DNA of 64,000 nt, from assembly GCA_963819215.1 (NCBI GenBank), contig CAWFVK010000009.1, forward strand, positions 17,267 to 81,266. The letters are read 5' to 3'. Of the stretch, positions 8,662 to 62,313 are shown one piece after another. The stretch comes from an uncultured Actinomycetota bacterium (GTDB lineage Bacteria; Actinomycetota; Actinomycetes; Prado026). Positions within the stretch are counted from its first letter, which is position 1. The number at the start of each line of letters is the position of its first letter. Under the pieces are notes generated by a model. The model ran no database searches. It was not told the origin of the DNA and worked only from the letters and a program-made list of their open reading frames with translations. The translations under genes were made by a program, and so were the position numbers.

Positions 8662-9713
8662 GTGAGCAGCAGGCGGCCGACGCTGGACGATGTCGCGGCG
8701 CTCGCCGGGGTCTCCCGGATGACGGTGTCGAACGCGTACAACCGCGCCTGACCAGCTCTCGGCGTCGACCAGGCTGCGGGTGCTGGAGGCCGCGCAGTCG
8801 CTCGGGTACCCCGGGTCCGACCCGGCGGCCCGCTCGTTGCGCAGGGGGCGGGTGGGTGCCGTGGGCGTCCTGCTGACCGAGCGCCTGCCCTACGCGTTCA
8901 CCGATCCGGGTCTCGTCCAGCTGCTGCGCGGGGTGGCGACCGCGCTGTCCGACGCAGGGCAGGGACTGCTGCTCGTGCCGACGATCGAGGGCGAAGGGCC
9001 GGCGCTGGTGCGGCAGTCCCTGGTGGACGCGTTCATCCTCTGCTCCGTCCCCGCCGGTGATCCCGTCGTCGCCGCGGTCCAGGAACGCCGGCTGCCGATG
9101 GTGACCGTCGGCAGCCCCAAGCTGCGCGGGGTGCCCTTCGTCGGGATCGACAACGAGGGCGAGGGGCGGGCTGATGGCGCGGCACCTGCTCGGGCTGGGG
9201 CACACCAGGCTGGTCGCGCTGGATGCCTCCAGTGGCGAGGCGGGGGAGCCGCCGCGCCCCGGCATGCGCTCGCGGATCCTCGGCTTCGTCAAGGAGTGCG
9301 AGAAGGAGCTCGGGCCGGGCTGCGTCCAGCAGGTCGAGGCGGAGAGCAACGACCGCTTCGGCGGACGGCACTGCCATCGGTCCGGTGCTGGGCCGTCGAC
9401 GCGAGCGTCCGACCGCGGTGTTCGCCTCGACCGACGTGCTGGCGCTGGGCGTCATGGACGAGGCCGCGGCCCGCGGGCTGGCGGTCCCCGGGCAGCTCTC
9501 GGTGGCCGGGTTCGACGACATCGACGCCGCGGCCGGGCCGTGCCAGCGTTGACGACTGTGCGGCAGCGGTTGACCGAGCAGGGTCGCATCGCCACCACGC
9601 TTGCCCTCGCCCAGGTCGTGGGCGAGGCCGTCAAGGTGCCCAGGCTGGCCACGCAGCTGGTCGTCAGGGACAGCACGGGACCCGTGCCGGGCGCGGGACG
9701 TACCTCTCGATGA
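8662..9713 (+). pseudogene. LacI-family transcriptional regulator, about 4 frameshifts as sequenced
   Basis: GTG at 8662 follows AGGGAGGA. The HTH reads PTLDDVAALAGVSRMTVSNAYNR. Sense then continues in other frames: RLRVLEAAQSLGYPG..VGIDNEG (ORF 8780), MARHLLGLGHTRLVAL.. (ORF 9174), TAVFASTDVLALGVMDEAAARGLAVPGQLSVAGFDD (ORF 9223) and PALTTVRQRL..* (ORF 9174 tail). Shifts fall near 8748, 9172, 9362 and 9546. Confidence 0.85.
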
Positions 9714-12864: not shown

Positions 12865-14622
12865 CTAGAGGATCGTGACGAGGCCGGTGCTGCCGTTGAC
12901 CTCGATCAGCGCTCCGTCGGGGATGCGCAGCGTGGCGTCCTGCGCGGACACCACGCACGGCACCCCGAGCTCGCGGCTGATGATCACCGCGTGCGTGATG
13001 ACTGCCCCGACGTTGACGACCACCGCGGCCGCGGGGACGAACAGCGGGGTCCAGGCAGGGTCGGTCTGCGGCGCGACCAGGATGTCCCCCGGCTCGAACA
13101 GACCGGTCTCGAACGGGTCCGTCACGATGCGCGCGATGCCGCGGGCGATGCCGGGAGCACCTGGCGTGCCCTGGATGGTGTCGCCCGTGCCGAGCAGGCT
13201 TCGCCGAGGATGCCGTGTCCGCCCGCCGGGGCCACTCGGACAGCGGCAGCGGCTCGGTGAGGAAGAAGGGCGGGTCGAGCTCGTAGAGCGCCAGGTAAGC
13301 AGGGACGCGCGCCGCGATCTCGTCCTTGAACGACTCCGGGTTCGCGACGAAGGCGTCGAGCTCGCTCTCGAGGAGCATGGTGATGTCGTGGTGGTCGGTC
13401 AGGATGCCGCGCTCGACCATCCGGTGGCCGAGCTCGAACACGGCCACCCTCATCTCGTTGGCGATCCGGATGCAGGCGGTCTTGGTGCGCTCCGCGCCAT
13501 GGCATGAAGCGAGCCGTGGACGCCGCGCCGGCGAGGAACGCTGCGCGCTCGGCGGGATCGTCGAGGCGGCCTGCGAGCTCTGCGGTCAGTGCCTCGCGCT
13601 TGGCGATGTTCTCGTGCAGGATCCGGACCGGGTCGCGTGACTCGTCGCTGCGGCGCATCTGGTCGATGAGGGCCAGCGCCATCTCGGGCCTGGTCTCCCA
13701 GCTGTCGCTGCGGAGGTCCCACTCGTTCGGTGCGCGGGAGCCGAACTCGTAGGTGAACGTCTCGAACTTCTCGACGAACTGGCGGGCGGCGTCGTCATCG
13801 CTGGCCTGCAGCGTGGCGAGGACGTCCTGGATGGGTCCCTCGAACGCCTGGGTGACGACCGCGGAGCCGGCCGCGATCCGACCGAGCTCCCACATCGCGT
13901 AGGACGGCTTCGCCGAGTCGACGTCGCCGATGCCGCTGATCAGGCTGCCGAGCTGGTCGATCTCGCCGAGCTTCATCAGCAGCGGGGCCATGGTCGTGAT
14001 CCCGACCACGCTGAAGACCGTCGCCGGGCAGTGCCACTTGTAGGAGAACGCGAGGTCGCCGGTGAGCGACGCGCGCGCGGTCGACGAGCTCCTGGTCGCT
14101 GACCGAGGCGAGGTCCGGGCGGCTCTCGCGGTCGGCCTTGGCGCGGGCCTTGGCCTCCTCGACCTCAGGGAACGTGGTCGTCGTCAGCGCCCACTCGCCC
14201 TTCGCGATCAGGCGCTGGGTGATCTCCGGGTCCTCGTCCGAGTCCCGGTGCTCCTGCGGCGGGATGTCGTCGCGGTCGCCGATCCATGCCTGGTTCCACG
14301 TCTCGACGGTCATGCCCGGCATGCGGGCGCCGATGATCGCGGTGATCGGCAGGCCGATGTAGTGGTAGCCGCCGAAGAACCCGGCGCCCTCGGGCCACTC
14401 CTCGTCGATCTCGTCCGGGCGGTGCGTGCCCTGGCAGACGGGGTCGGTGTATCCCTCGCGGCGCCCGACCTCGACGCCGAGGTGCCAGACCAGGGTCGAG
14501 TTGAGCGGGCTGGAGGGATCAGGAAGGACCTCGCCGGCGTTCGCCCGCGTGTACTGCGGATAGCGCTCGCTGAAGGGCCAGTCGCTGATGTACCGGTCGT
14601 CGGGCACCGTTGTGCTCATCAA
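12865..14622 (-). pseudogene. PEP-utilising enzyme family protein with a swivel (mobile) phosphohistidine domain, about 4 frameshifts
   Basis: N-terminal ORF 13795..14622, middle ORF 13122..14009 (..FETFTYEFGSRAPNEWDLRSDSWETRPE..), ORF 12500..13453 (..LGHRMVERGILTDHHDITMLLESELDAF..), then ORF 12865..13125. The last encodes the mobile domain GDILVAPQTDPAWTPLFVPAAAVVVNVGAVITHAVIISRELGVPCVV. Confidence 0.75.
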
Positions 14623-26644: not shown

Positions 26645-28652
26645 ATGCAGGCATTCCTTCGACGGGGTCTTATCGCCGGTACAGCCGTAGCGGTAGGCAT
26701 CGCCGTTGCCGTCCCCCAAGCTGCGTCAGCGGCGACCCCGGCACCCCGGGCGACCATTGACTCGGCCCCCGCCTGGGCGGCACACGCGTCCGCAAGCGCG
26801 CGCGTTCCGGCGTCCCAGCGGCTGCAGCTCACGGCAGTCCTGAAGCTCGCCAACGCTGCCGGCGCCGAGGCGGCCGCCAAGGCCATCTCCGACCCCAGCA
26901 GCGCGAGCTACCGGCACTACATGACCGCTGCCCAGTGGCGTCAGGCGTTCGCGCCGACCGATGCCCAGCTCAAGACGGTCACGTCCTGGCTGACCAGCAA
27001 CGGCTTCAAGGTCGGCTCGGTCCCGGCGAACCACCGGTACGTGTCGTTCAGCGGCACGGCGGCGCAGGCCGAGGCTGCGTTCGGCACTCAGCTGTCGACG
27101 TTCACCAAGTCCGGCAAGAAGGTCATGGCGCCGACCACGAACGTCTCGATCCCGAGCAGCCTGGTCGCGACCGTGCAGGGCATCTCCGGCCTTGACACCT
27201 CGAGCCTCGCGCAGCCGATGAACACCACCGGCGCCGACGCGGCGGCCACCCCGGCCAAGGTCGCGCCGACCCCGCCCGACGGCACGCTGCCCCTGCCAGA
27301 CCCGGTCTTCAAGAATGGCACCCCCTGCTCCGCGTACTACGGCCAGAAGGCCGCGACCTCGGTCCCGCAGATCCTCAAGGACCCGCTGACCTACGCACCG
27401 TGCGGCTACAAGCCGGCCCAGATCCGCGGCGCCTACGGTCTCGACCAGTCGCAGTCGGCCGGCTACGACGGGCGCGGCGCGACCGTCGCGATCGTCGACG
27501 CCTACGCATCGCCGTACATCTTCAGCGACGCGCAGACCTACGCGGCCAAGAACGACCCCAGCCACCCGCTGCGGTCCTACCAGTTCAACCAGCTCCTGCC
27601 CGCGACCTACTCCGAGGTCGAACGAGTGCGGCGCATCGGGTTGGTACGGCGAGGAGACGCTCGACGTCGAGGCCGTGCACGCAACGGCACCGGCCGCGAA
27701 CATCCTCTACGTCGGCGGCGTCGAGCTGTGAGGACGGCGACCTCGACGCCGCGGTCAACTCGGTCGTCGACAACAGCCTCGCCCAGATCATCACCAACTC
27801 CTACGGTGACACCGGCGAGCCCAGCTCGAAGGCGGACGTCGCCGAGGAGCACCAGACGTTCCTGCAGGCGGCAGCCCAGGGCATCTCGGTGCATGTTCTC
27901 CTCCGGTGACGACGGCGACGAGATCGTCAACACCGGCACCCGCCAGGTCGACTACGAGGCGTCCGACCCGTACGTCACCGCAGTCGGGCGGCACCTCGCT
28001 CGCCATCGGCTCGTCGAACAACTACGAGTGGGAGCAGGGCTGGGGCACCGGCAAGTCGGTCCTCACCAACGGCGCCTGGGACCCGCTGAAGCCGGCCTAC
28101 ATCTACGGCGGCGGCGGCGGCACCAGCGCACTGTTCGCCGAGCCCTGGTACCAGAAGGGCGTCGTCCCGACGTCGATCTCGAACTAATTCGGCAACGGCA
28201 ACCACCGAGCGGTCCCGGACATCAGCATGGACGCTGACCCGAGCACCGGCTTCCTCGTCGGTCAGAGCCAGACCTTCCCGAACGGGTCGGTCAAGTACAG
28301 CGAGTACCGCATCGGTGGCACCAGCCTCGCCAGCCCGCTGTTCGCCGGCGTGACTGCGGTCGCCGACCAGGTGGCCGGTGGGTCGCTCGGGTTCTTGAAC
28401 CCGTCGATCTACAAGCTCAGCGGTACCGCGGCGGTCACGGACATCAACCACGGTCGCAAGGTGACCGACGGGGTCGTCCGGGTCGACTACGCCAACGGCT
28501 TCAACGCCGCTGACGGCACGATCGTCTCGCTGCGTACGCAGAACCAGACCGGCACGATCTACACGCGCGCCGGGTACGACGACGCGACGGGTGTCGGCAG
28601 TCCTGCCGGCGTCAGCTACCTCATCGGGGTGGCGTCGCTCGCGAAGAAGTAG
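26645..28652 (+). pseudogene. S53 (sedolisin/kumamolisin-type) serine peptidase with pro-domain; 4 frameshifts plus one in-frame TAA
   Basis: Signal peptide plus pro-kumamolisin activation domain (..YRHYMTAAQWRQAFAPTDAQLKTVTSWL..), clean to about 27618. Then ECGASGWYGEETLDVEAVHA, SSCEDGDLDAAVNSVVDNSLAQIITNSYG, MFSSGDDGDE, GGTSLAIGSS..GGGGGTSALF. Next comes TAA at 28185-28187, then FGNGNHRAVPDISMDADP...YRIGGTSLASPLFAG (catalytic Ser) in the same frame. Confidence 0.85.
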
Positions 28653-38992: not shown

Positions 38993-40620
38993 GCCGGGTC
39001 CGGGTCTTCGTGCCCTGCGACTCCGCGGCCAGGTCCGTCGGGGCCGACGACGTCGCGGTCGCGGTGCTCGCCGAGGCCGCCGCTCGCGGTCTGGACGTCG
39101 AGCTGGTGCGCAACGGGTCCCGTGGCATGTTCTGGCTCGAGCCGCTGGTGGAGGTCGAGACCTGGCCGGGCGCGTCGCCTTCGGTCCGGTCGGCTCGGAC
39201 GACGTCGCCGGCCTGTTCGACGCAGGATTCCTCGGTTCAGGATCGCTCGGGCCGGATCGCCGGATGCAGGTCGGCCGGATGCAGGTCGGCCGGATGCTGG
39301 TCAGGTCGCCGATCACCCGCTCGCGCTGGGGCTGACCGAGGACCTCCCGTGGCTGGCGCGCCAGGACCGCCTCACCTTCGCTCGGGTCGGCGTGATCGAT
39401 CCGCTCTCGCCGAGCGACTTCGAGGCGCACGGAGGACTGGCCGGCCTGCGCGCAGCGCTGGCGCTCGCCGCCCGAGCGATCGTCGAGAGGGTGACCGAGT
39501 CCGGGCCTTCGCGGCCGTGGCGGGCGCCGGGTTCCCGACCGGCATCAAGTGGAGGACCGTCGCCGAGGCGCCGGCGACGCCGAAGTTCGTCTGCTGCAAC
39601 GCCGACGAGGGCGACAGCGGCACCTTCGCCGACCGCATGCTGATGGAGGGCGACCCGTTCACCCTGATCGAGGGCATGATCATCGCCGCGATCGCGGTCG
39701 GGGCGACCGAGGGCTTCGTCTACATCCGCTCGGAGTACCCCGACGCGGTGGCGACGATGCGCCGGGCGATCGCCGTCGGCCTACGAGCAGGGCTGGCTCG
39801 GCGCGAGCGTCGCTGGGCAGCGCGCACCGTTTCGACCTCGACGTCCGGGTCGGCGCCGGCGCCTACATCTGCGGGGAGGAGACCGCGATGCTGGAGAGCC
39901 TCGAGGGCAAGCGCGGGATGGTGCGGGCCGAAGCCGCCGCTGCCGGCGCTCGAAGGGCCTGTTCGGGCGGCCGACCGTCGTCAACAACCTGCTCGTCGCT
40001 GGCGCAGCGTGCCGACGATGCTCGCCGACGGCGGCGCGGAGTTCTACCGCGACTTCGGCGTCGGACGCTCCCGCGGCACCCAGGTGTTCCAGCTCGCCGG
40101 CAACGTCAAGCACGGCGGCATCGTCGAGACTGCCTTCGGCATCACGCTGGGCGAGCTGGTCGACGACTTCGGTGGTGGCACCGCCTCGGCCGGCCGGTGC
40201 GTGCGGTGCAGGTCGGCGGCCCGCTGGGCGCGTACGTCCCGGCCGAGAGCTTCGACCTGCCGATGGACTACGAGGCGTTCGCGGCGCCGGCGCCATGGTC
40301 GGGCCACGGCGGCATCGTCGTGTTCGACGACACCGTCGACATGGGCGCGCAGGCGAGGTTCGCGATGGAGTTCTGCGCCGAGGAGTCGTGCGGCAAGTGC
40401 ACGCCGTGCCGGGTCGGGGCCGACCGCGGCGTCGAGGTCATCGACAAGATCCTCGTCGGGGTCGACGCTGGGGAGAACGCCGAGAACCTGGTGCTCCTGC
40501 AGGACCTCTGCGAGCTCATGACCGACGGCTCGCTGTGCGCGATGGGTGGCCTGACGCCGATGCCTGTCCTCAGCGTGCTCAAGCACTTCCCGGAAGATCT
40601 CCGAGAGGAGCCGGCGATGA
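38989..40620 (+). pseudogene. fdsB: NAD-dependent formate dehydrogenase beta subunit (NuoF-like), about 14 frame changes
   Basis: Fragments in rotating frames: MSRVRVFVPCDSAA..GMFWLEPLVEVET, GRVAFGPVGSDDVAGLFDAGFL, HPLALGLTEDLPWLARQDRLTFARVG, GAGFPTGIKWRTV..VCCNADEGDSGTFADRMLMEGDP (FMN/NAD motifs), VRVGAGAYICGEETAMLESLEGKRG, KPPLPALEG, GLFGRPTVVNNLL, ESCGKCTPCRVG, GSLCAMGG. Confidence 0.85.
39251..39304 (+). repeat. 15-bp tandem repeat (about 3.5 copies) inside fdsB encoding PDAGR-PDAGR-PDAGQ
   Basis: CCGGATGCAGGTCGG at 39260-39274 and 39275-39289, a variant CCGGATGCTGGTCAG at 39290-39304, and a truncated copy GCCGGATCG at 39251-39259. Confidence 0.9.
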
Positions 40621-43457
40621 GCCTGCGCAAGCCCGTGGATCTGGGGACCCCGCTCGTCCCGGGTGCCGCCACCGTCCAGGTGGTCGGTCGACGGACTGCC
40701 GGTCGACCGTGCCGCCAGGGACCTCGATCATGCGGGCCGCGGCCATCGCCGGCGTGGACATCCCGAAGCTGTGCGCCACGGACTCCCTGGAGGCCTTCGG
40801 CTCGTGCCGGCTGTGCCTGGTCGAGGTCGACGGCCGCAAGGGCACCCCAGCCTCCTGCACGACCCCGTGCGCGCCGCGGCATGACCGTGACCACCCAGAC
40901 GCCGCGACTGGAGAAGCTGCGGCGCGGCGTGATGGAGCTCTACATCTCCGACCACCCGCTCGACTGCCTGACCTGCCCCGCGAACGGCGACTGCGAGCTG
41001 CAGGACATGGCCGGCGTGGTGGGGCTCCGCGACGTCCGCTACGGCTACGACGGGCGAGAACCACCTCGACGGCGCGAACGACGACAGTCCAACCCGTACT
41101 TCAGCTTCGACGACAGCAAGTGCATCGCCTGCTCGCGCTGCGTGCGCGCCTGCGACGAGGTGCAGGGGACCTTCGCGCTCACGATCGCCGGCCGTGGCTT
41201 CGACTCACGGGTGTCGGCGAGCGCGGGCGAACCTCTTCATGGAGTCCGAGTGCGTCTCGTGCGGCGCCTGCGTGCAGGCGTGCCCGACGTCGACGCTCCA
41301 GGAGAAGACGGTCATCGAGCTCGGGGTCCCGACCAGGACGGTCGCGACCACCTGTGCCTACTGCGGCGTCGGCTGCTCGTTCAACGCCGAGATGCGCGGC
41401 GACCAGGTCGTGCGGATGGTGCCCGACAAGTCCGGCGGCGCCAACGAGGGCCACAGCTGCGTCAAGGGCCGGTTCGCCTGGGGCTACGCGACCCACAAGG
41501 ACCGCCAGCTCGAGCCGATGGTCCGCGGCGTCGATCGACGAGCCGTGGCGGGTGGTGTCCTGGGAGGAGGCGATCAGCTACGCGGCCGAGCGCTTCCTCG
41601 AGCATCCAGGCGGAGCACGGCGTCGGCGCGATCGGCGGGATCACCTCCTCGCGCTGCACCAACGAGGAGGTCTTCGTCGGTGCAGAAGATGATCCGCGCG
41701 GCGTTCGGCAACAACAACGTCGACACCTGCGCGCGGGTCTGCCACTCCCCGACCGGCTACGGCCTCAAGCAGACGTTCGGCACCTCGGCGGGCACCCAGG
41801 ACTTCGCCTCGGTCGCCGAGGCCGACGTGATCGTGGTCATCGGCGCCAACCCGACCGACGGCCACCCGGTGTTCGCCTCCCGGATGAAGCGCCGGCTGCG
41901 CGAGGGTGCCGAGCTGGTCGTCGTCGACCCGCGCCGGATCGACATGGTGCGCACGCCGCACATCGAGGCCGAGCACCACCTGCAGCTGCGCCCGGGCACC
42001 AACGTCGCGATCGTCAACGCGCTGGCGCACGTCGTGGTGACCGAGGGGCTCGTCGACCGGGCGTTCGTCGCGGAGCGCTGCGAGGCCGACGAGCTTCGCG
42101 CAGTGGGAGGCGTTCATCGCCGCGACGGAGAACAGCCCGGAGGCGGTCGAGGCAGATCACCGGCGTGCCGGCCGCGGACATCCGGGCCGCGGCTCGGCTG
42201 CTACGCGTCCGCCCGCAACGCCGCGATCTACTACGGCCTCGGCGTCACCGAGCACAGCCAGGGCTCGACGATGGTCATGGGCATGGCGAACCTCGCGATG
42301 GCGACCGGCAACATCGGCCGCGACGGCGTAGGCGTCAACCCGCTGCGCGGTCAGAACAACGTGCAGGGCTCGTGCGACATGGGCTCCTTCCCGCACGAGC
42401 TCCCCGGCTACCGGCACGTCAGCGACGACACCGCTCGGCACGTCTTCGAGGACCTCTGGGGGACGCCCCTGGACGCCAACCCCGGCCTGCGGATCCCCAA
42501 CATGTTCGAGGCCGCGATCGCCGGCACCTACCGCGCGATGTTCGTCCAGGGCGAGGACATCGCGCAGTCCGACCCCAACGTCGACGCACGTGAAGGCGGC
42601 GCTGGGCTCGCTCGACCTGCTCGTCGTGCAGGACCTCTTCCTCAACGAGACGGCCAAGTTCGCCCACGTCTTCCTGCCGGGCACCTCGTTCCTGGAGAAG
42701 GACGGCACGTTCACCAACGCCGAGCGCCGGATCAACCGGGTGCGGCCGGTGATGGCGCCCAAGACGGGCAAGCAGGAGTGGCAGGTCGCCTGCGAGCTCG
42801 CCACCGCCATGGGCTACCCGATGGACTACGCGAACGGCGCCGAGATCATGGCGGAGATCGCGGCCACCACGCCGACCTTCGCCGGTGTCTCGTTCGCCCG
42901 GCTCGACGAGCTCGGCAGCATCCAGTGGCCGTGCAACGCGGACGCTCCGGACGGCACCCCGATCATGCACGTCGACGGCTTCGTGCGAGGCAAGGGGCAC
43001 TTCGTCGACACGCCCTTCGTCCCGACCGAGGAGCGCACCAGCCGCCGGTTCCCGCTGGTGCTGACCACCGGCCGGATCCTCAGCCAGTACAACGTGGGCG
43101 CGCAGACGCGGCGCACGGCCAACGTCGCGCTGGCACGGTGAGGACGTCCTCGAGATCCACCCCCATGACGCCGAGGAGCGCGGGATCACCGAGGGCTGCT
43201 CCGTCGCGATCACCAGCCGGGTCGGCGAGACGGTGCTGCGCGCGAAGATCGCCGACCGGATGCCGCAGGGTGTGGTCTACACGACGTTCCACTACCCGAG
43301 CAGCGGCGCGAACGTCATCACCACGGACTACTCCGACTGGGCGACGAACTGCCCGGAGTACAAGGTGACGGCGGTGCAGGTGTCGCCCACCGTGCGGGCG
43401 CCGGTCACGGACGCCGAGAACGAGGCCGAGCACCAGCCGGTGGCCAGCTTCCAGTGA
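40617..43457 (+). pseudogene. fdsA: NAD-dependent formate dehydrogenase alpha (molybdopterin) subunit, about 14 frame changes
   Basis: Fragments: GVDIPKLCATDSLEAFGSCRLCLVEVDG (2Fe-2S), YISDHPLDCLTCPANGDCELQD, CIACSRCVRACDEVQG, ESECVSCGACVQACPT, TTCAYCGVGCSF, NNVDTCARVCHSPTG (Cys, not Sec, at the Mo ligand position), GQNNVQGSCDMG, ..TTFHYPSSGANVITTDYSDWATNCPEYKVTAVQV..*. Confidence 0.9.
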
Positions 43458-52332: not shown

Positions 52333-53071
52333 CTAGCGGTGCAGGCCGCACTCGGTCTTGGCGAACCCGGCCCAGCGACCAGAGCGGGGGTCCTCGCCGG
52401 GGGCGACCGGGCGGGTGCACGGGGCGCAGCCGATCGAGGCGTAGCCGAACTCACGCAGCGGGTTGTAGCGAAGGCCGTGCTCGAGGACGTAGGCGTCGAC
52501 CTGATCCTGCGTCCAGGTCGCGATGGGGTTGATCTTGACCTTGCCGCGGGCGCCGTCCCAGGCGACGACCGGGGTCGCGGCCCTGGTGCTCGCCTCGTCG
52601 CGGCGGACCCCGCTGATCCAGGCGTCATACGGCGCGAGCGCGCGGTGCAGCGGCTCGACCTTGCGCATCGCGCAGCACGCGTCGGGGTCGCGGTCGTGCA
52701 GCTGGGAGCCGTAGACGGCGTCCTGCTCCTCGACGCTGAGCTCGGGCCGGATGTCGATGACGTTCGCGTTGAGCCGCTCTGCCACCGAGCGCCGGAAGTC
52801 GAGGGTCTCCGGGAAGTGGTACCCGGTGTCGAGGAACACGACGTCGATGCCCGGGACTGCGGTGGAGGCGAGATGCAGCGACGACCTCGTCGGCCATCGA
52901 CGACGTCACGACGAGCCGCGGGCCGAAGGTGCGGCCGGCCCACGCGAGGGTCTCGCGGGGGTCGGCGTCCTCGAAGGCGCGGCTGGCCGCAGCGACCAGC
53001 TCACGGGTCGGTGCGGTGGCATAACGCGCAGCGGTCGGCGCGAGCGGCACGGCCTGCTCGAGCAGCGTCAC
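52333..53071 (-). CDS. cysH: phosphoadenosine/adenosine phosphosulfate reductase (1 frameshift near 52860 as sequenced)
   Basis: The N-terminal 70 aa (VTLLEQAV..LAWAGRTFGPRLVVTSSMADEVV) sit in the frame of ORF 52625..54808. The rest is ORF 52333..52839 (FLDTGYHFPETL.., C-terminal ECGLH). The GTG overlaps the sirA stop. Confidence 0.85.
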
Positions 53072-54808
53072 TTCAGCACCTCCTCGTCTGCGCGGACCGC
53101 CCACTGGGCGAACGTCTCGCCCTCGGACCGGCCCTCGTCGAACTGGTGGACCACACGCTCCACATAGTCGGGCAGGTCGGTCGCGGCGACGCGCAGGCCG
53201 CGGACCGTCCGACCGAACCCGGCCTCCTGGCCCAGCCGACCACCTAGATGAACCTGGAACCCCTCGGTGTCGCCGCCCATTCCATCGGGCACGAGGACGC
53301 CCTTGAGCCCGATGTCGGCGACCTGGATCCGGGCGCAGGAGTTGGGGCAGCCGTTGACGTGGATGGTCAGCGGCTCGGCGAAGGTCGGCAGGCGATCCTC
53401 GAGCGCGGCGACCAGCGTGCCGGCGTTGCCCTTCGTCTCGGTGATCGCGAGCTTGCAGTACTCGATGCCCGTGCACGCCATGGCGCCCCGGCGGAAGGTG
53501 CTCGGGGCGACCTGCAGACCCACGCCGTCGAGGGCCGCGGTCACGGCGTCGACCTGGTCCGCCGCGACGTCGAGCACGACGATGCTCTGCTCGACGGTCA
53601 GGCGGAGCTGGTCCGAGCCAGCTAGCTCCATCGCGTCGGCGAGGGTGCTGAGCGACGTGCCGGACAGCCGTCCGACGGTCGGCTTGGCGCCGATGGAGAA
53701 GCGGCCGTCCTTCTGCGGGTGCACGCCGATGTGGTCGCGACGGCCACGGGGCGGGTCGGCCGGCGGCGGGCCCGTCGCGCAGCGGGCGCTTGAGGTACTC
53801 GGTCTCCAGCACCTCGCGGAACCGGGCAGCGCCCCAGTCCGCCACCAGGAACTTCAGGCGCGCCTTGGTGCGCAGCCGGCGGTAGCCGTAGTCGCGGAAG
53901 ATGCTGACCACCCCGGCCCAGACCTCGGGGATCTCGTCCAGCGAGACGAAGGCGCCGAGCCGCTGAGCAAGGTGCGGGTTGGTGGACAGCCCGCCGCCGA
54001 CCCAGACGTCGAAGCCGGGGCCGTGCTCCGGGTGGCGCACGCCGACGAACGAGAGGTCGTTGACCTCGTGCGCGACGTCCTGGTGCGGTGAGCCGCTGAT
54101 CGCCGTCTTGAACTTGCGGGGGAGGTTGGAGAACTCCGGGTTGCCGACGTGCCGGCGCACGACCTCCGCGATGGCGGGGGTGCCGTCGACGATCTCGTCG
54201 ACCGCGACACCGGCGACGGGCGAGCCGAGGATGACGCGCGGGGTGTCGCCGCAGGCCTCGGCGGTGCTCAGCCCGACCGCCTCGAGCCGCCGCCAGATCT
54301 CCGGGACGTCCTCGACCCGGATCCAGTGCAGCTGGATGTTCTGCCGGTCGGTCACGTCGGCGGTGTCACGGGCGAAGTCGCGGGAGATGCCGGCGATCAC
54401 CCGGACCTGCTCAGTCGTCAGCGCGCCGCCGTCGATGCGGATCCGCAGCATGAAGAAGGGTGCGTCCAGCTTCTCCGGCTCGATCGTGGCGGTACGGCCG
54501 CCGTCGATTCCCTCGGCACGCTGTGTGTAGAGCCCCCACCAGCGCATCCGGCCACGGAGGTCGGACGGATCGATCGAGGCGAACCCGCGGTGGGCGTAGA
54601 TGTTCTCGATCCGGGCGCGGACGTTCAGCCCGTCGTCGTCCTTCTTCATCCGCTCGTTCACGTTGAGGGGCTCGTGGAAGCCGAGCGCCCACTGGCCCTC
54701 GCCGCGTGGCTTGCCGCCACCGCGCGTGCGCGGCGGCTTCCCGCCCGCGACAGGTGCGGCGGGCGGCTGGGACGGAGGAGAGGCGGCGGGCGTTGCAGGG
54801 GTGGTCAT
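53068..54808 (-). CDS. sirA: ferredoxin-dependent sulfite reductase (NirA/SirA type) (1 frameshift near 53760 as sequenced)
   Basis: N-terminal 350 aa: MRWWGLYTQR, FFMLRIRIDGG, RQNIQLHWI, TAEACGDTPR. The C-terminal part in ORF 53068..53724 has the siroheme/4Fe-4S cysteines ACTGIEYCKLA and VNGCPNSCAR. Confidence 0.88.
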
Positions 54809-55101
54809 CGAGCGTCCTTCGTGAGGGAGGACGTGGAACGGGCTCGGGTCCGTGGCGGCGCGACTTCGCGCCCCGGAGGCCGGGAGCGTCCACGCCCGGC
54901 GGAGGTGCTGCGGGCGTCGGTCAGGTGACCGAGGGCTGGAGGCCGGCCAGTCGGCAACCCATGCAGCTGACCCTCATGAGGTCGACGTGACGACGCTCGA
55001 TCAGCAGCGGGGACGCGGGCAGCATGCTCAGAGTCTCGCAGATCCGTCCACGGACCGGTACGAGGGTCCGGATGGCGGACGCAGTTCTGGGCGTCGCCGC
55101 C

Positions 55102-55524
55102 TCAGGCTGGGGCGAGGTAGACCTTCCTCAGGGTCTGGTGGACTCGCCAGGTCGTCCGTGCGCCGGCAGCGAGCAGCCCGACGGTGCCAGGACTCAGCTC
55201 GAGACGGGGACCGCCCTCGACCTCGACGGTGGCGCGGCCGCTCAGCACGACGAACACCTCGTCGGCCTCCACGTCGGTCGACGTTCCCACCGTGTGCTCC
55301 CAGACGCCGACCTCCCACGCGGCACCGGTGGATCCGCCGCCGGGGCCTGCGGTCAGCTGGCGCGATGCCGTCTCGGGCGTTCCGGCGAGCACCTGAGCGG
55401 CGTCCAGGGGGCTCGGGTCGAGCGCCAGGCCCAGGGCGTCGAAGGCAGCGCAGCGCTGGGCTGCGCTGGGTTCGTTGGGTTCTGCGCTGGCGTCGCTGGG
55501 TTCGACGGATGGGGTGGAGGGCAT
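55102..55524 (-). CDS. cupin domain protein (DUF861/EutQ-like)
   Basis: Intact 140 aa. The C-terminal VGVWEHTVGTSTDVEADEVFVVLSGRATVEVEGG..LELSPGTVGLLAAGARTTWRVHQTLRKVY is a single cupin barrel. Confidence 0.65.
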   Translation of the reverse strand: MPSTPSVEPSDASAEPNEPSAAQRCAAFDALGLALDPSPLDAAQVLAGTPETASRQLTAGPGGGSTGAAWEVGVWEHTVGTSTDVEADEVFVVLSGRATVEVEGGPRLELSPGTVGLLAAGARTTWRVHQTLRKVYLAPA

Positions 55525-55655
55525 GGGCGGACCTTAACGGGAGCCGCCGGCGGCCTCAGCCAGACGCCTCGCGGCGGTGAATGACATCGATGGGATTTGC
55601 CCCCTACGATGGGGCAGGCGGCCCGGGAGGGGAAGCCTGGGCCGCTCTAGACGCT

Positions 55656-55752: not shown

Positions 55753-56058
55753 GTGGATCCCGCCAACGCGGCCGGTTCGCTCAGCTCGGCAGCACTGTCC
55801 GGCCAGGACGGCCTCAGCGAGCGCGACCACGCGATCCTCGCGTTCGAGCGCCAGTGGTGGAAGTACGCCGGAGCCAAGGAGCAGGCCGTCCGCGACCTGT
55901 TCGACATGTCGGCCACGCGGTACTACCAGGTGCTGAACGCGCTCATCGACCGCCCGGAGGCCCTGGCCAGCGACCCGATGCTGGTCAAGCGACTGCGCCG
56001 GCTGCGGGCCTCGCGGCAGCGCGCTCGCTCGGCGCGTCGCCTCGGCTTCGACGCCTGA
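55753..56058 (+). CDS. DUF3263 domain protein
   Basis: LSERDHAILAFERQWWKYAGAKEQAVRDLFDMSATRYYQVLNALIDRPEALASDPMLVKRLRR is the DUF3263 pattern. I prefer the GTG at 55753 (AGGAAGGAG 8 nt upstream) over the ORF-track start at 55726. Confidence 0.75.
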   Translation: MDPANAAGSLSSAALSGQDGLSERDHAILAFERQWWKYAGAKEQAVRDLFDMSATRYYQVLNALIDRPEALASDPMLVKRLRRLRASRQRARSARRLGFDA

Positions 56059-56757: not shown

Positions 56758-57550
56758 ATGGGCGCGCTTCTCGACTCCGTCCTGGCGGCGATGGACGCTG
56801 ATCCATCGCACGCGCTCGTGGTCGTCGACTTCGACGGCACCCTCGCCCCGCTGGTCGCTGATCCGCTCGCCGCCGCCCCCTTGCCGGGCGCGATCGAAGC
56901 GCTCGTCGACCTCGCCGGGCGGATCGGGCAGGTGGCGGTGCTGACGGGTCGCCAGGCCGAGGTGGCGGTCCGGCTGGGAGGGCTGGAGCGCGTTCCTCGG
57001 CTCGTGGTGCTCGGGCTGTACGGCGCCGAACGGTGGGACGCCGAGACCGCGGTGCTGCGGTCCGCCGAGGTACCCGCCGGGATGGCCGGGCGCCCGCGCA
57101 GAGGTGGAGGCGCTGGTCGCCGAAGCACCGGCGGGGGTGGGGCTCGAGGACAAAGGCTCGTCGATCGCGGTGCACACCCGGCGCACGGCGCACCCGGACG
57201 CGACGCTCGCCGCCCTCATCCCCTCGCTGCAGCGCATCGCGGCGGACCACGATCTCCTCGCCGAGCCGGGGAAGCTGATCCTGGAGATCCGGGGCCGGGG
57301 CATGGACAAGGGCATCGCGCTGCGGGAGCTCGTCCGGGCCACGGGTTCCGCGGCGGTGCTCTACGCCGGCGACGACCTCGGCGACCTGCCGGCCTTCGCC
57401 GCGGTCAAGCAGCTGCGCGCGGACGGCCTGCCCGCCGTCGGCGTCGCGGTGGCCTCCGAGGGTGCCGATGCGGCGGTTGCGCAGGCGGCGGACGAGACCG
57501 TCTCGGGTCCGCCGGCCTTGCTCGAGGTGCTGCGGCGCATCCGGGCCTAG
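56758..57550 (+). CDS. otsB: trehalose-6-phosphate phosphatase (1 frameshift near 57090 as sequenced)
   Basis: HAD motif I VVVDFDGTLAP. The second part is in ORF 57104..57550 (GLEDKGSSIAVHTRR, ILEIRGRGMDKGIAL, LYAGDDLGDLPAF). Confidence 0.85.
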
Positions 57551-59091
57551 CTCCTGCTGCACTGGTTGAGCGAGCAGCGCCAGCTGGTTCTGGAGCCACA
57601 GGGCCGGTGGCAGCGCGGTGGCCCGGGGAGCGAGACGTTCGGCCCGTGCAAGCCGCTCCGCCGGCGTCCATCGAGAGCGCCGTGTGCAGGGCTTCTGCGG
57701 TCTCGCCGACGTCGTACGGGTTGATGACGAGCGCATCGGCACCGAGCTCGTCGGCGGCGCCGGCCTCACGGCTCAGCACCAGCACGCAGCCCTGCGCGCT
57801 CAGCACCGGGCCTTCCTTGGCGACCAGGTTCATCCCGTCACGCACCGGGTTGACCACCAGCACGTCGGCCAGCTGGAAGGCAGCCAGCGACCTCGGGTAG
57901 TCGTCGTCGACGTCCAGCAGCACGGGCTGCCAGCCCACGTCCCCGAACTCGTCGTTGATCTCGGCAGCCAGCCGCTGCACGGCAGCCGTGTACTCGCGGT
58001 AGACGGGGAGGTCGTGCCGGCTCGGGTAGGCGAACGCGACGTGCATGACGCGGCGGTGCCAGCGTGGCTGCGGCCGCAGCAGCTCGCGGTAGGCCTCCAG
58101 CCCGCGCGACGATGTTCTTCGAGAGCTCCGTGCGGTCGATGCGCAGGATCATCTGCCGGCCGGCCAGCGCCTCGCGCAGGTCTGCGAGCCGGGTGGCGAC
58201 GTCGGGCTGGCTCGCGCGCTGCCGCAGACCGGAACCGTCGACCCCGAGCGGGTGCACGTCGACCGCAGTGGTGCGGCCCCGATGGGTGACGGCCCAGCGG
58301 CGCCACCGGCGCACCACCGGCCGTACCAGCGGCTGTCGCGTCGGGCCCCGCGTCCGCGGCCTGCTGGATGTCGGCCCCGAGGACGTCGGCGCAGCAGTGC
58401 ACGAAGGCCTCGGCCCAGCGCGGTGACAGGAAACCTGCTCGATCGGCACCGAGGATGCCCTCGAGCACGGCCACCCCGACTTGCTCGGGCAGCAGCGCGA
58501 AGTACTCCGGGGGCGCCCAGGGCGTATGCGAGAAGTGCGCGATCCGCAGGTCCGGCCGGAGCTCGCGGAGCTGTCCGGGGTCAGCGTCAGGTGGTAGTCC
58601 TGCACGAGCACCCGCGCGCCTGGCGCCGCCTCGGCCGCCAGCGCCTGGGCGAAGCACTGGTTGTACTCGACGTAGGAGGCCCAGTCCCGCGTGAAGCGGC
58701 TGGAGAAGACGGGCTCGACCGGGGTGTTGAACAGCATGTGGTGCACGAACCACAAGGTCGAGTTGGCCACCGAGCTGTAGGCCCTGCTGAAGGTGCCGGC
58801 GTCGATGTCGAGCATGCGGACGACCGTCTCGGAGTCCGTGCCGCTGTCCTCCGGCGGGACCGGCAACCGGCCGTCCACCGTCGACCGCAGGGCCCGTCGA
58901 TCGGCATCGGAGAGCGCGGCGCACACCCACACGGCACTGCCCGCCGCCGACAGGCCGGAGACCAGCCCGCCGCCGCCACGCCTGGCCACCAGCTCGCCCG
59001 TGTCGGTCACCACGTACGACAGGGGCCCACGGTTCGAGGCGAGCACGACCGGCGCCGTGCCGGCGAGCGAGGCGGGGGTGCGTGCGTCCAC
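57547..59091 (-). pseudogene. otsA: alpha,alpha-trehalose-phosphate synthase (GT20), about 6 frame changes
   Basis: VVLASNRGPLSY.., GGLVSGL, STLWFVHHMLF, VLVQDYHLTL; then LRELRPDLRIAHFSHTPWAPPEYF; GVDG..LREALAGRQMILRIDRTELSKNIV; HVAFAYPSRHDLPVYREY..VNPVRDGMNLVAKEGP.. The fragments rotate through all frames. The proposed stop shares CTAG with the otsB stop. Confidence 0.85.
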
Positions 59092-59100
59092 GAGCCCACC

Positions 59101-60103
59101 CTAGGCGGCGGGTTGAAGGCTCAGCTGGCGCGGGCCGTGCGGTACTCGCCTGGTCTCGCATCGGTGGGCGCTCCACCAGCTCGACGTCGGTCGTCGTCGG
59201 GAGGAACGACGTGGCGTCGTCCCCACGCGCGAACTGGGTCAGGGTCGGGTTCACCGGCGCGCGGCTGCTGATGCGGCCTGCGCGCTCGAGCCTGGCCTGC
59301 GCCACCTGCAGGATCTCGCTGGCCATCAGCCCGAGACGAAGGTCGTCCTGGTGACGGTGGTGCCGCACCCCGAGGTCGACCTGGGCGATGGCATCCAGCC
59401 CGCGCAGCTCCAGCGTGTCGACCAGGATCGCGAGCTCGACGCCGTACCCCGTAGGGAACCAGAGCTGCTCCAGCAACGAACGCCGCGCCGCGTACTCGCC
59501 GGCGAGCGGCTGGACGACGCCAGCGAGCTCGGGCCAGTACAGGTTCAGCAGCGGCCGGGCCACGAGCTCGGTCACCCGTCCGCCGCCTGCAGGGAGAAGC
59601 GTCGCCCCGTCGCTCAGCGGCCGGTCGTAGACGGCCTTCACGAGCTCGACTGCTGGATCGGCGAGCAGCGGCCCGAGCAGGCCGAGGACGTAGGACGAGG
59701 AGAAGTGGCGAAGGTCCGCGTCGACGAAGACGAGCAGGTCCCCGGTGGTCGCGGCGAGCGCGCGCCACAGCACCTCACCCTTGCCGGCGACCGCGGGGAT
59801 CCGGGGCAGGATCTCGTTGCGGTGCACCACCTGCGCGCCGGCCGCCTCGGCCCGGCGTGCGGTGGCGTCGCTCGAGCCCGAGTCGACCACCACGAGCTCG
59901 TCGACCACCGGCCAGCGTCCACCGACCAGGTCGGCCTGCACCGCGGCGACGATGGCTCCGACCGTGTCCTGCTCGTCGAGCGCCGGGAGGACGACCGAGA
60001 CGGTGCAGCCCTGCGCCTGCTTGGCTGCCAGCACGTCGTCGCGGGACCACCGGTCCGCTGAGCTGAGCCGGCGATCGAGCCACCGCTGCACGTCAGGTCG
60101 CAC
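59101..60103 (-). CDS. gpgS: glucosyl-3-phosphoglycerate synthase (GT81); 3' end unresolved (probably 1 frameshift near 59110-59150)
   Basis: TVSVVLPALDEQDTVG, LVVVDSGSSD, GKGEVLWR, LVFVDADL, GGGRVTELVARPLL, PLAGEYAA, GYGVELAILVD, QVDLGVRHHRHQ, ..VERPPM. The GTG at 60103 after GAGAGGGGA is preferred over the low-GC3 extension to 60235. In-frame reading runs into otsA without a stop, and a +1-type shift would give the TAG at 59101. Confidence 0.8.
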
Positions 60104-60230
60104 GGTGGTCCCCTCTCGGCCCTCGCGCCCGTCACCGTCTCGCCAGCCGGACAGCTGGTCTCGCGTGATGGCGGGGTTCGGTACAGTTTCCGTCACGTTC
60201 GCCGTAGCGGCGAGCCACAACTTCATATCG

Positions 60231-60338
60231 CTCATCCAGAGGGGCAGAGGGAACGGCCCGTTGAAGCCCCGGCAACCAGAGCGCAGATGCTCCAGGTGCC
60301 AACTCCGTCCTGCCGAGGATTTCGGCGGGGAAGATGAG
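60231..60338 (+). promoter_or_regulatory. SAM-I (S-box) riboswitch
   Basis: CTCATCCAGAGGGGCAGAGGGAACGGCCCGTTGAAGCCCCGGCAACC...CCAGGTGCCAACTCC...GAAGATGAG matches the S-box core (AUC.AGAG.GG..GAGGGA..GGCCC..UGAA.CC.GGCAACC ... GGUGC.AA.UCC ... GAUGAG). The P1 3' strand GATGAG runs into the SD GAGGAGAGG, 8 nt before the ATG at 60352. Confidence 0.85.
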
Positions 60339-60351
60339 GAGAGGATTCATC

Positions 60352-61690
60352 ATGACCACCGTCACCTCTGTGACAGACAGCTCTGTGACACCCAGCGCGG
60401 TGACACCCAGCTCGGTGACACCACCCGGCCAGCCCCTCGGTCGTCGCCGATTCGAATGCCCGGCCCTACGGCCCCGCGACGGCGCTGGTCTGTCGCGAGT
60501 GTGGTGAGCGGTACGCCCTCGGTGCGCGGTACGCCTGCGACGAGTGCTTCGGGCCCCTCGAGGTCGGCTACGACTTCGGCACCGTCACCCGCGAGCAGAT
60601 CGAGCAGGGTCCCGCCTCCATCTGGCGGTACGCACCGCTCCTGCCGGTCGCCGCGGATCCGAGCGCCCGCCCCGTCGACCTCCAGCCCGGGTGGACCCGG
60701 CTCCACCGCGCGGACAACCTCGCCGCAGCGCTCGGCATGCGCTCCCTGTACGTCAAGGACGACAGCGGCAACCCCACGCACTCGTTCAAGGACCGCGTGG
60801 TCGCCGTCGCGGTGACCGCCGCTCACACCCTCGGGCTCGGCACCATCGCCTGCGCGTCGACCGGCAACCTCGCCGGTGCGGTGGCGGCGGCAGCGGCCAG
60901 GGCGGGGCTGCGCTCCGTGGTGCTCATCCCCGACGACCTCGAGGACGGCAAGACGCTGAACGCCGCGGTCTACGGCGGCTCGCTGGTCGCGGTGCAGGGC
61001 AACTATGACGACGTCAACCGGCTCTGCAGCGAGGTCGCGTTCGACCACCCCGAGTGGGGCTTCGTGAACGTCACGCTCCGCCCGTTCTACGCCGAGGGAT
61101 CGAAGACGGTCGGGTTCGAGATCGCCGAGCAGCTCGGCTGGCGCCTGCCGCAACAGGTCGTCGCCCCGATCGCCTCTGGCTCGCTGCTGACCAAGGTGGA
61201 CAAGGCCTGGCGCGAGCTCGCCGCCCTCGGCCTCGTCGAGACCACGCCGTACCGGGTGTTCGGTGCGCAGGCCACCGGCTGCTCGCCGGTGTCACGAGCG
61301 TTCGCCGACGGGCAGGACGTCGTCCGACCCGTGAAGCCGGACACGATCGCCAAGTCGCTGGCCATCGGCAACCCCGCGGACGGCCCCTACGCGCTCGACG
61401 TCGTGCGGCGGACCGGCGGTGCGATCGCCGACGTCTCGGACACCGAGGTCGTCGAGGGCATCCGGCTGCTCGCCGAGACCGAGGGGATCTTCGCGGAGAC
61501 CGCGGGCGGCGTGACCGTCGCAGTCCTGCGCAAGCTGCTCGCCGAGGGCACCCTCGACCCGGACGCCGAGACGGTGATCCTCAACACCGGTGACGGCCTC
61601 AAGACCCTGGATGCCATCGCCGACGTCGTCGGCCCGACCGTCACCATCCGTCCGTCCCTGGACGCATTCCGAGAGGCTGGCCTGGCGTGA
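60352..61690 (+). CDS. threonine-synthase-like PLP enzyme with N-terminal zinc ribbon (MetM-like; 1 frameshift near 60430-60460 as sequenced)
   Basis: The ATG at 60352 opens a short frame carrying 4 pentapeptide repeats. The main frame has no start codon before 60737 but encodes PYGPATALVCRECGERYALGARYACDECFGPLEV (Cys4 ribbon), KDDSGNPTHSFKDRV (PLP lysine), ACASTGNLAG, NTGDGLK. Confidence 0.8.
60367..60426 (+). repeat. 15-bp tandem repeat x4 at codons 6-25 of the ThrC-like gene (SVTDS-SVTPS-AVTPS-SVTPP)
   Basis: TCTGTGACAGACAGC, TCTGTGACACCCAGC, GCGGTGACACCCAGC, TCGGTGACACCACCC. Each copy carries GTGACA, which puts TGA stops in the adjacent frame. Confidence 0.9.
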
Positions 61691-61962
61691 GCGTCACCGT
61701 CCGAGTCCCCACCATCCTGCGCCAGTACACCGGCGGCGCCTCCGAGGTCAGCGTCGAGGGCGGCACCCTCGCCGAGGTCGTGACGGCGCTCGAGGCGGCG
61801 CACCCTGGCATCGGCCCGCGCGTGCTCGACGACGACGGCAAGCTGCGCCGCTTCGTCAACGTGTACGTCGGGGACGAGGACGTCCGCTTCGCCGAGGGCC
61901 TGGCGACGGCGACGCCGGCCGGGTCCACCGTCTCGGTGATTCCGGCCGTCGCTGGCGGCTAG
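61687..61962 (+). CDS. MoaD/ThiS-family sulfur-carrier protein ending in Gly-Gly (MetO/CysO-like)
   Basis: Intact 91 aa. The ubiquitin-like pattern reads VTVRVPTILRQYTGGASEVSV.G.TLAEVVTAL......VNVYVGDEDVR........GSTVSVIPAVAGG*. Its GTG overlaps the upstream stop (GTGA). Confidence 0.85.
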   Translation: MSVTVRVPTILRQYTGGASEVSVEGGTLAEVVTALEAAHPGIGPRVLDDDGKLRRFVNVYVGDEDVRFAEGLATATPAGSTVSVIPAVAGG

Positions 61963-62007
61963 CCGCTACTACGCTGGGACCCGGTGGGACGCGACGAAGG
62001 AGTACGG

Positions 62008-62208
62008 ATGGCGCAGGGCACCGTGAAGTGGTTCAACGCGGACAAGGGCTACGGCTTCATCGGGTCCGACGAAGGCCCTGACGTGTTCGTCCACTACAGC
62101 GCCATCGAGGGCAGCGGCCACAAGTCGCTCGACGAGGGCGACCGCGTCGAGTTCGAGGTCTCGCAGGGCCAGCGCGGTCCGCAGGCCGACGGCGTGCGCA
62201 AGCTCTAG
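62008..62208 (+). CDS. cspA: cold-shock protein (CspA family)
   Basis: [18 protein letters not shown] (RNP1) and DVFVHYSAI (RNP2). The ATG at 62008 follows GAAGGAG. Confidence 0.92.
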
Positions 62209-62223
62209 CGGCGCGCTCGACGG

Positions 62224-62250
62224 CTTGCACTCACAGGGGTCGAGTGCTAA
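62224..62250 (+). promoter_or_regulatory. CIRCE element (HrcA operator), copy 1
   Basis: CTTGCACTC-N9-GAGTGCTAA versus the consensus TTAGCACTC-N9-GAGTGCTAA. Confidence 0.85.
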
Positions 62251-62258
62251 TCATTGAG

Positions 62259-62285
62259 TTAGCACTCCCCTAGGGCGAGTGACAG
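62259..62285 (+). promoter_or_regulatory. CIRCE element (HrcA operator), copy 2 (right arm degenerate)
   Basis: TTAGCACTC-N9-GAGTGACAG, 8 nt after copy 1 and 125 nt upstream of the groEL ATG. Confidence 0.7.
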
Positions 62286-62313
62286 CAGTACCTGACCGAG
62301 ATCGTGGAGATGA

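Follow-up and report, generated by a model that had tools for sequence, protein, structure and literature searches.

A stretch of 64,000 nucleotides (nt) from an uncultured, high-GC Actinomycetota bacterium (assembly GCA_963819215.1, contig CAWFVK010000009.1, positions 17,267 to 81,266 of the forward strand; hereafter the window, numbered from its first letter) carries what is very probably a metM–metO operon controlled by a SAM-I (S-adenosylmethionine) riboswitch, in which a frame break within metM would be an assembly indel. This reading is carried by an aptamer in front of the genes, by the domain content of the two encoded proteins, by their order and its conservation among relatives, and by the separation of the enzyme from housekeeping threonine synthase (ThrC).

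A predicted SAM-I riboswitch ahead of metM

The leader contains the following features:

60229-60340, plus strand: SAM-I (S-box) aptamer, Rfam RF00162, full model (1-108/108)
60336-60345, plus strand: Shine-Dalgarno-like purine tract GAGGAGAGGA, read off the sequence

An earlier reading of the DNA, made from the letters alone (the sequence-only reading), had placed an S-box aptamer directly ahead of the operon. A covariance-model scan of the 64-kb window with Rfam bore this out, with RF00162 matching at 60229-60340 at 83.2 bits (E 3.8e-18), which clears the gathering score of 44.4 bits, and with no other Rfam match anywhere in the window. The P1 helix of the aptamer is formed by CUCAUC at 60231-60236 and GAUGAG at 60333-60338. 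The 3′ strand of P1 shares its final 3 nt with the start of GAGGAGAGGA, which agrees with the proposed overlap between P1 and the Shine-Dalgarno (SD) sequence, and the metM start codon, ATG at 60352, lies 13 nt past the end of P1. By model score and conserved position, the locus is predicted to be a SAM-I riboswitch-type leader that would bind SAM.

Two further elements were seen upstream. Relatives often, if not always, keep an ACAAC(U) motif 8-14 nt 5′ of P1 (60215-60228 is the corresponding region of the window), which may belong to the leader structure, a promoter or the surroundings of a transcription start, and a −10-like hexamer, TACAGT, at 60182-60187 is common to the window and the locus of its closest relative, L081.

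MetM is related to threonine synthase and separate from the housekeeping enzyme

60419-61690, plus strand: metM body, encoding a ThrC-family fold-type II pyridoxal phosphate (PLP) enzyme; Pfam PALP and TIGR00260; stop TGA at 61688-61690

The first gene had been described as encoding a zinc-ribbon threonine-synthase homologue. Its product matches Pfam PF00291 (PALP) at 228 bits and TIGR00260, the thrC equivalog model, at 273.6 bits (cut-off 167.1), and it carries an N-terminal zinc ribbon of the form CxxC-x12-CxxC (CRECG…CDEC, 60491-60547) and the PLP lysine motif SFKDR (60782-60796, lysine codon 60788-60790). Because the TIGR00260 cut-off is passed, the database name is "threonine synthase".

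The closest relative of MetM is a protein from a JGI metagenome (P0001, encoded at L081), which is 91% identical. Riboswitch-linked orthologues from Streptomyces abikoensis, Herbidospora, Longivirga and Frankia are 70-75% identical, with S. abikoensis L079 at 71%. Four solved ThrCs, from M. tuberculosis, T. thermophilus, A. aeolicus and B. subtilis, are 35-39% identical to MetM and 57-63% identical to one another across phyla. The translations of loci L065, L029 and L007, which were in a wrong frame, were excluded from this comparison. MetM does not cluster with the characterised ThrCs by this measure, which is one of pairwise identities and not of a full tree, in keeping with the expectation that it would lie apart from bona fide threonine synthases. 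The solved ThrCs align only from query residue ~64, and the N-terminal zinc-ribbon region of MetM is without counterpart in them. Taken together, the comparisons point to a ThrC paralogue of the MetM clade, distinct from housekeeping ThrC.

We considered that the enzyme might merely be the organism's threonine synthase and that the small open reading frame (ORF) downstream encodes an unrelated MoaD or ThiS. In favour of this, the TIGR00260 score exceeds its cut-off, the relatives are all named "threonine synthase" in databases and the nearest solved structures are ThrCs. However, the identity to four characterised ThrCs is low when set against the identity among those four, the zinc-ribbon region is additional to them, and MetM proteins are commonly misannotated as threonine synthase (GapMind 2026 preprint, bioRxiv 10.1101/2024.10.14.618325). 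With the gene context described below also speaking against it, we regard a housekeeping threonine synthase as highly improbable.

MetO is a Gly-Gly sulfur carrier coupled to metM

61687-61962, plus strand: metO, encoding a 91-aa sulfur carrier of the ThiS/MoaD/CysO type; Pfam ThiS

The second gene had been read as a MoaD/ThiS-like protein ending in Gly-Gly and coupled to the first by GTGA, and each part of that description agrees with our results. MetO matches Pfam ThiS (PF02597) at 47.9 bits, its C-terminus is AVAGG with the Gly-Gly codons at 61954-61959 followed directly by TAG, and its GTG start overlaps the metM TGA stop by 4 nt (GTGA, 61687-61690). Of the solved structures, M. tuberculosis CysO comes nearest (3DWG chain C, E 1.8e-27), followed by the ThiS/MoaD-family protein in PDB entry 4N6E.

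Among relatives, MetO homologues end in AGG in 54 loci and in GGC in 13 (L023, L024, L037, L039, L043, L052, L056, L058, L065, L073, L075, L076 and L077), and a few others have longer tails. The GGC-ended carriers would need C-terminal trimming, which fits the role reported for the hydrolase Mec. Since the MetO of the window ends directly in Gly-Gly, it needs no trimming.

The riboswitch–metM–metO order is kept across Actinomycetota

Conservation was assessed in 80 related loci taken from one-genome-per-species collections, which span Streptomyces, Nonomuraea, Herbidospora, Catenulispora, Frankia, Longivirga and many uncultured Actinomycetota. A SAM-I aptamer was found directly 5′ of the orthologue in all 11 loci scanned with Rfam, four of which are from Streptomyces, and a motif search recovered it in 78 of 82 sequences. 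In 75 sequences, 9-22 nt separate P1 from the start codon. Of 81 loci, 71 have a MetO homologue 3′ of the enzyme gene, and the ten without an adjacent metO include some that are cut by contig ends, two from Frankia and a few Nanopelagicales-type genomes. We conclude that the order riboswitch–metM–metO is widely and uniformly kept across Actinomycetota. This context bears on the identity of the enzyme, as what precedes the gene in nearly every relative is a SAM riboswitch and not a threonine-related signal, and what adjoins it in those 71 loci is a Gly-Gly carrier.

The window and L081 share a longer synteny, gpgS | riboswitch-metM-metO-csp-groEL. Five loci (L007, L012, L020, L022 and L059), comprising the two from Frankia and some Nanopelagicales-type metagenome-assembled genomes, have the riboswitch and metM with no metO downstream, where the sequence examined in the two Frankia loci extended ~0.5 kb. 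The carrier gene of these five must lie at another site, or the carrier of a different pathway must serve both.

The predicted route from O-phosphohomoserine to homocysteine

The sequence-only reading had argued from SAM control that the pair makes a methionine precursor by a MetM/MetO-type route, and the published Streptomyces albulus system, together with the conserved riboswitch and carrier, agrees with that proposal. In S. albulus, MetM, a ThrC homologue, and the thiocarboxylate of MetO convert O-phosphohomoserine to homocysteine (Hasebe et al. 2024, AEM 90:e01247-24, as summarised in bioRxiv 10.1101/2024.10.14.618325); MoeZ acts as sulfur ligase in this route and Mec as hydrolase (bioRxiv 10.1101/2024.10.14.618325). 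The S. albulus metM has a SAM riboswitch upstream, and its loss results in methionine auxotrophy (PMC12172450).

Judged from homology and this literature, the chemistry in the organism studied here would run as follows. MetM would form a PLP-bound intermediate from O-phosphohomoserine, as ThrC does, and the sulfur of the MetO C-terminal thiocarboxylate, instead of water, would then attack in a gamma-replacement that yields homocysteine. MetO would depend on a MoeZ-type adenylyltransferase/sulfurtransferase for its charging and, in cases that call for it, on a Mec-type JAMM hydrolase for processing or release; the genes for both presumably lie outside the window. The sequence-only reading had also stated that the activating enzyme for the carrier is not in the window, and this stands for the parts that were scanned. 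Pfam scans of predicted coding segments across ~5.7-33.7 kb and 36.7-60 kb returned no ThiF/MoeZ, rhodanese, JAB/Mec, MetX/MetY or ThrB-type domains; direct Pfam scans of the operon gave no MoeZ/ThiF-type enzyme; and a motif scan for a carrier-activating enzyme, run over the window in all six frames, gave only spurious matches.

Several points weigh against the operon as we read it. A Microcystis homologue of MetM, which has no riboswitch and is 51.6% identical to S. albulus MetM, was reported to act as a threonine synthase/deaminase (PMC12172450), so family membership alone does not fix the reaction, and orthology to the S. albulus pair rests on sequences from other Streptomyces species. In folding models of 75 homologues the mean unpaired probability of the SD was 0.44 with P1 enforced and 0.46 with the P1 5′ strand blocked. 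Moreover, as assembled, metM cannot be translated from its own start codon into the catalytic domain, and no independent assembly of the organism was found against which the extra base could be checked. With these points counted, a SAM-I riboswitch-controlled metM–metO operon is still the reading we hold. It is a further case, in an uncultured actinobacterium, of the recently described O-phosphohomoserine/thiocarboxylate route to homocysteine under SAM-riboswitch control. The operon opens no new question, and its practical value lies in annotation, as the gene is named "threonine synthase" and called as a truncated protein of 317 aa.

Control most likely acts at translation initiation

Two tracts that flank the aptamer and the SD enter into the predicted folds:

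60221-60224, plus strand: CUUC tract, candidate anti-Shine-Dalgarno, predicted to pair with GAGG at 60341-60344 and so lengthen P1
60346-60351, plus strand: UUCAUC tract, which can pair with GAUGAG at 60333-60338, with the SD in the hairpin loop

The absence of a terminator stem, claimed from the sequence alone, was upheld: no terminator-like site was detected in 60000-62300, and because the start codon follows only 13 nt after P1, there is no room for one. With the SD immediately adjoining P1 and too little space for a terminator, the geometry makes control by SAM at translation initiation most likely. When SAM is abundant, it would bind the aptamer and lock P1, and the folded aptamer would most likely block 30S loading and switch translation off, as the SD begins in the P1 3′ strand or right behind it and only 13 nt separate P1 from the start codon. 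In the window sequence, the CUUC:GAGG extension of P1 may add to this block.

Folding predictions give the two states similar energies. With P1 formed, the helix is extended through UC:GA and CUUC:GAGG over the SD (−65.4 kcal/mol). When the 5′ strand of P1 is blocked instead, GAUGAG is paired with UUCAUC (−63.2 kcal/mol). The minimum free energy fold of 60215-60400 contains CUUC:GAGG and is identical whether or not P1 is enforced, and the GAUGAG:UUCAUC hairpin appears in the unconstrained fold of 60200-60420. Homologues have purine tracts equivalent to GAGGAGAGGA directly 3′ of P1, and most have a pyrimidine tract, usually CCUC, at the place equivalent to UUCAUC. The 5′ flanks of the homologues, by contrast, are not consistently complementary in a way that would extend P1, and the mean unpaired probability of the AUG (0.52 with P1 enforced, 0.53 with the P1 5′ strand blocked, same 75 homologues) gave no systematic signal either. 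Because modelled SD accessibility does not differ between the states and the 5′-flank pairing is inconsistent, we infer the translational mechanism and do not read it from the folds. The folded aptamer may occlude the SD sterically, or Rho may have a secondary effect on the C-rich start of the ORF.

It is possible, although rather unlikely, that the riboswitch acts chiefly on transcription, for example through Rho-dependent termination in the C-rich start of metM when it is left untranslated, or on mRNA stability. The lack of a consistent change in modelled SD accessibility would agree with this, as would the composition of the first 90 nt of the ORF, which is C-rich and G-poor (C 0.42, G 0.25) and of the kind favoured by Rho. 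Nevertheless, the region holds no intrinsic terminator, every homologue has its SD right next to P1, as translational switches usually do, and Rho action would itself follow from a translational block. Control at translation initiation therefore remains the mode we consider most likely.

The metM reading frame is broken near its start

The start of metM comprises:

60352-60507, plus strand: metM start ORF, 51 codons, from ATG 60352 to TGA 60505-60507 (translation)
60366-60422, plus strand: 15-nt tandem repeat, 3.8 copies (Tandem Repeats Finder, period 15, 88% matches)
60419-60466, plus strand: frame-change zone, with C runs at 60424 (CCC), 60433 (CCCC), 60459 and 60464

The operon described by the sequence-only reading stood as to its genes and domains but not as to an enzyme encoded by a single ORF, for that reading had overlooked a break: the frame that opens at ATG 60352 stops at 60505-60507. 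The zinc ribbon and the PLP domain are in the +1 frame relative to this ATG, a frame whose open stretch begins at 60419 and in which no ATG, GTG or TTG occurs before 60737. A +1 frame change within 60419-60466 is needed to join the two, and the true N-terminus takes in the ORF at ATG 60352 no further than ~60420-60466. Dropping any single base in 60419-60466 restores a 445-aa ORF that reads …SNARPYGPATALVCRECG…. The relatives' enzymes have 416-480 aa and are intact. The public gene call on the contig is a truncated protein of 317 aa (P0056).

Alignment to L081 locates the break in the same way. In the DNA alignment, ATG 60352 is matched with the in-frame TTG of L081 and is followed by a conserved ACCGT, and for this reason we take 60352 to be the homologous start; downstream, the window needs a +1 shift before …YGPATALVCRECG. 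The 15-nt repeat, which is absent from L081, encodes SVTDS/SVTPS/AVTPS/SVTPP in the low-complexity N-terminal extension of MetM, and the N-termini of the relatives' MetM proteins are likewise rich in Ser, Thr and Pro and variable in length.

Two ways of reading through the break as it stands were considered and set aside. Programmed +1 frameshifting at UGG-UGA (60502-60507) was rejected because the first CxxC of the zinc ribbon would then be left out. A start elsewhere in the catalytic frame is unlikely, given that only CTG 60485 or an ACG lies 5′ of the zinc ribbon, without a clear SD-like purine tract. Searches for an independent assembly of the organism came back empty: exact look-ups of truncated MetM and of MetO gave no match, a metagenome scan with a 24-mer gave none, and a second with a 20-mer gave 16 chance matches, none of them homologous.

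The most likely explanation of the one-base break is an assembly indel and not biology, because the neighbouring otsA and otsB are also frameshifted, with one junction in a run of four G. Were the frameshift genuine, metM would be a pseudogene in a decaying operon, and homocysteine or methionine would be obtained by another route or by uptake. The break is present in the sequence as given, the catalytic frame has no canonical start before 60737, and no independent assembly was found that contradicts it. Yet the remainder of metM is 91% identical to an intact orthologue with no further stops, the gene keeps a strong coding-type third-position GC, the riboswitch and metO are intact, and frameshifts that also break adjacent conserved genes, at or near short C/G runs, are typical of consensus errors and not of selective decay of one gene. 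On this balance we think a pseudogene unlikely. Less likely by far is that the extra base, among the C runs just past the 15-nt repeat, is real and is decoded by programmed +1 frameshifting, or serves as a slippage-prone on/off switch for homocysteine synthesis. If it were so, a real extra base in 60419-60466 would constitute a second layer of control on top of the riboswitch.

Frame breaks elsewhere in the window

Upstream of the operon, two trehalose genes are broken:

57405-59091, minus strand: otsA, four colinear pieces in frames −2/−1/−2/−3 (aligned to syntenic-locus proteins)
56782-57547, plus strand: otsB, two pieces, with the break between 57063 and 57137

The Pfam domains Glyco_transf_20 and Trehalose_PPase are spread over the separate otsA and otsB pieces. 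The otsA junctions lie at 58576-58579, which is exactly a GGGG run, at ~58293-58355 and at ~58103-58108, and apart from the first, the otsA and otsB junctions are near short C or G runs. At two other genes, those for a LacI-type regulator (~8750-9546) and for a formate dehydrogenase alpha subunit (~41674-43454), one Pfam domain continues across a change of frame. Adjacent same-strand segments in differing frames were also seen for a PEP-utilising enzyme, a kumamolisin-like protease and a NuoF-like subunit, which may hold further breaks (candidate regions 12868-14610, 26807-28649 and 39499-40685). Should these candidates be frameshifts, the number in the window would come to about ten or more.

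Each frameshifted piece retains a high coding-type third-position GC and high identity to relatives. A strict whole-ORF filter on third-position GC missed many genes owing to the frame breaks, and a best-segment approach was used in its place. The window appears to carry many gene-breaking indels, which look like consensus errors and not decay.

A related case is the gpgS-like glycosyltransferase ORF on the minus strand (57830-60235), which runs for 801 codons without a stop into the territory of otsA. Homology covers only ~59138-60115, and the stop codon has probably been lost to another indel. The listed ATG of this ORF, at 60235, coincides with riboswitch sequence and is probably not the true start.

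Neighbouring genes

On the minus strand, 5-8 kb ahead of metM (~52336-55560), is a sulfate-assimilation cluster that encodes a sulfite/nitrite reductase (NIR_SIR), a PAPS/APS reductase (PAPS_reduct) and a CbiX-type chelatase. Just beyond it, on the opposite strand, is a DUF3263 gene (~55795-56022). Downstream of metO are a cold-shock gene (62008-62208) and groEL, from ~62314. Between these two are a pair of inverted repeats, at 62225-62250 (TTGCACTC-N9-GAGTGCTAA) and 62259-62285 (TTAGCACTC-N9-GAGTGACAG), which are putative CIRCE-like elements of the HrcA operator type.

Comparison with known systems

The MetM/MetO system is already known, having been described in 2024, and the operon in the window is an ordinary actinobacterial copy of it whose sole unusual point is the frame break in metM. 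It shares with the S. albulus pair a ThrC-like PLP enzyme gene followed by one for a small Gly-Gly carrier, with a SAM riboswitch ahead, and the equivalents in other Streptomyces have the same gene order and 67-71% identity to the window genes. The host, by contrast, is an uncultured actinobacterium outside Streptomyces. The MetO of the window ends in GG, whereas the 13 relatives whose carriers end in GGC include several Streptomyces, and its metM has a private 15-nt repeat in the N-terminal extension and is frameshifted as assembled.

The M. tuberculosis CysM/CysO/Mec/MoeZ pathway follows the same logic, in which a fold-type II PLP enzyme joins an O-phospho-amino acid with a protein thiocarboxylate. 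Unlike CysM, the window enzyme belongs to the ThrC branch and not to the CysK/CysM branch. By homology, its substrate would be O-phosphohomoserine and its product homocysteine, with control by SAM, and neither mec nor moeZ accompanies the operon.

With housekeeping ThrC (M. tuberculosis 2D1F, T. thermophilus 1UIM) the window enzyme has in common the fold, the PLP-lysine motif and probably the substrate, O-phosphohomoserine. It differs in its identity of only 35-39%, its added zinc ribbon, its SAM riboswitch and its linked sulfur carrier. Finally, the leader is of the same RF00162 family, matched over the full model, as the SAM-I S-box leaders of Bacillota, which have terminator/antiterminator platforms. 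The platform in the window consists of only the SD and ~13 nt with no terminator, as in switches that act on translation.

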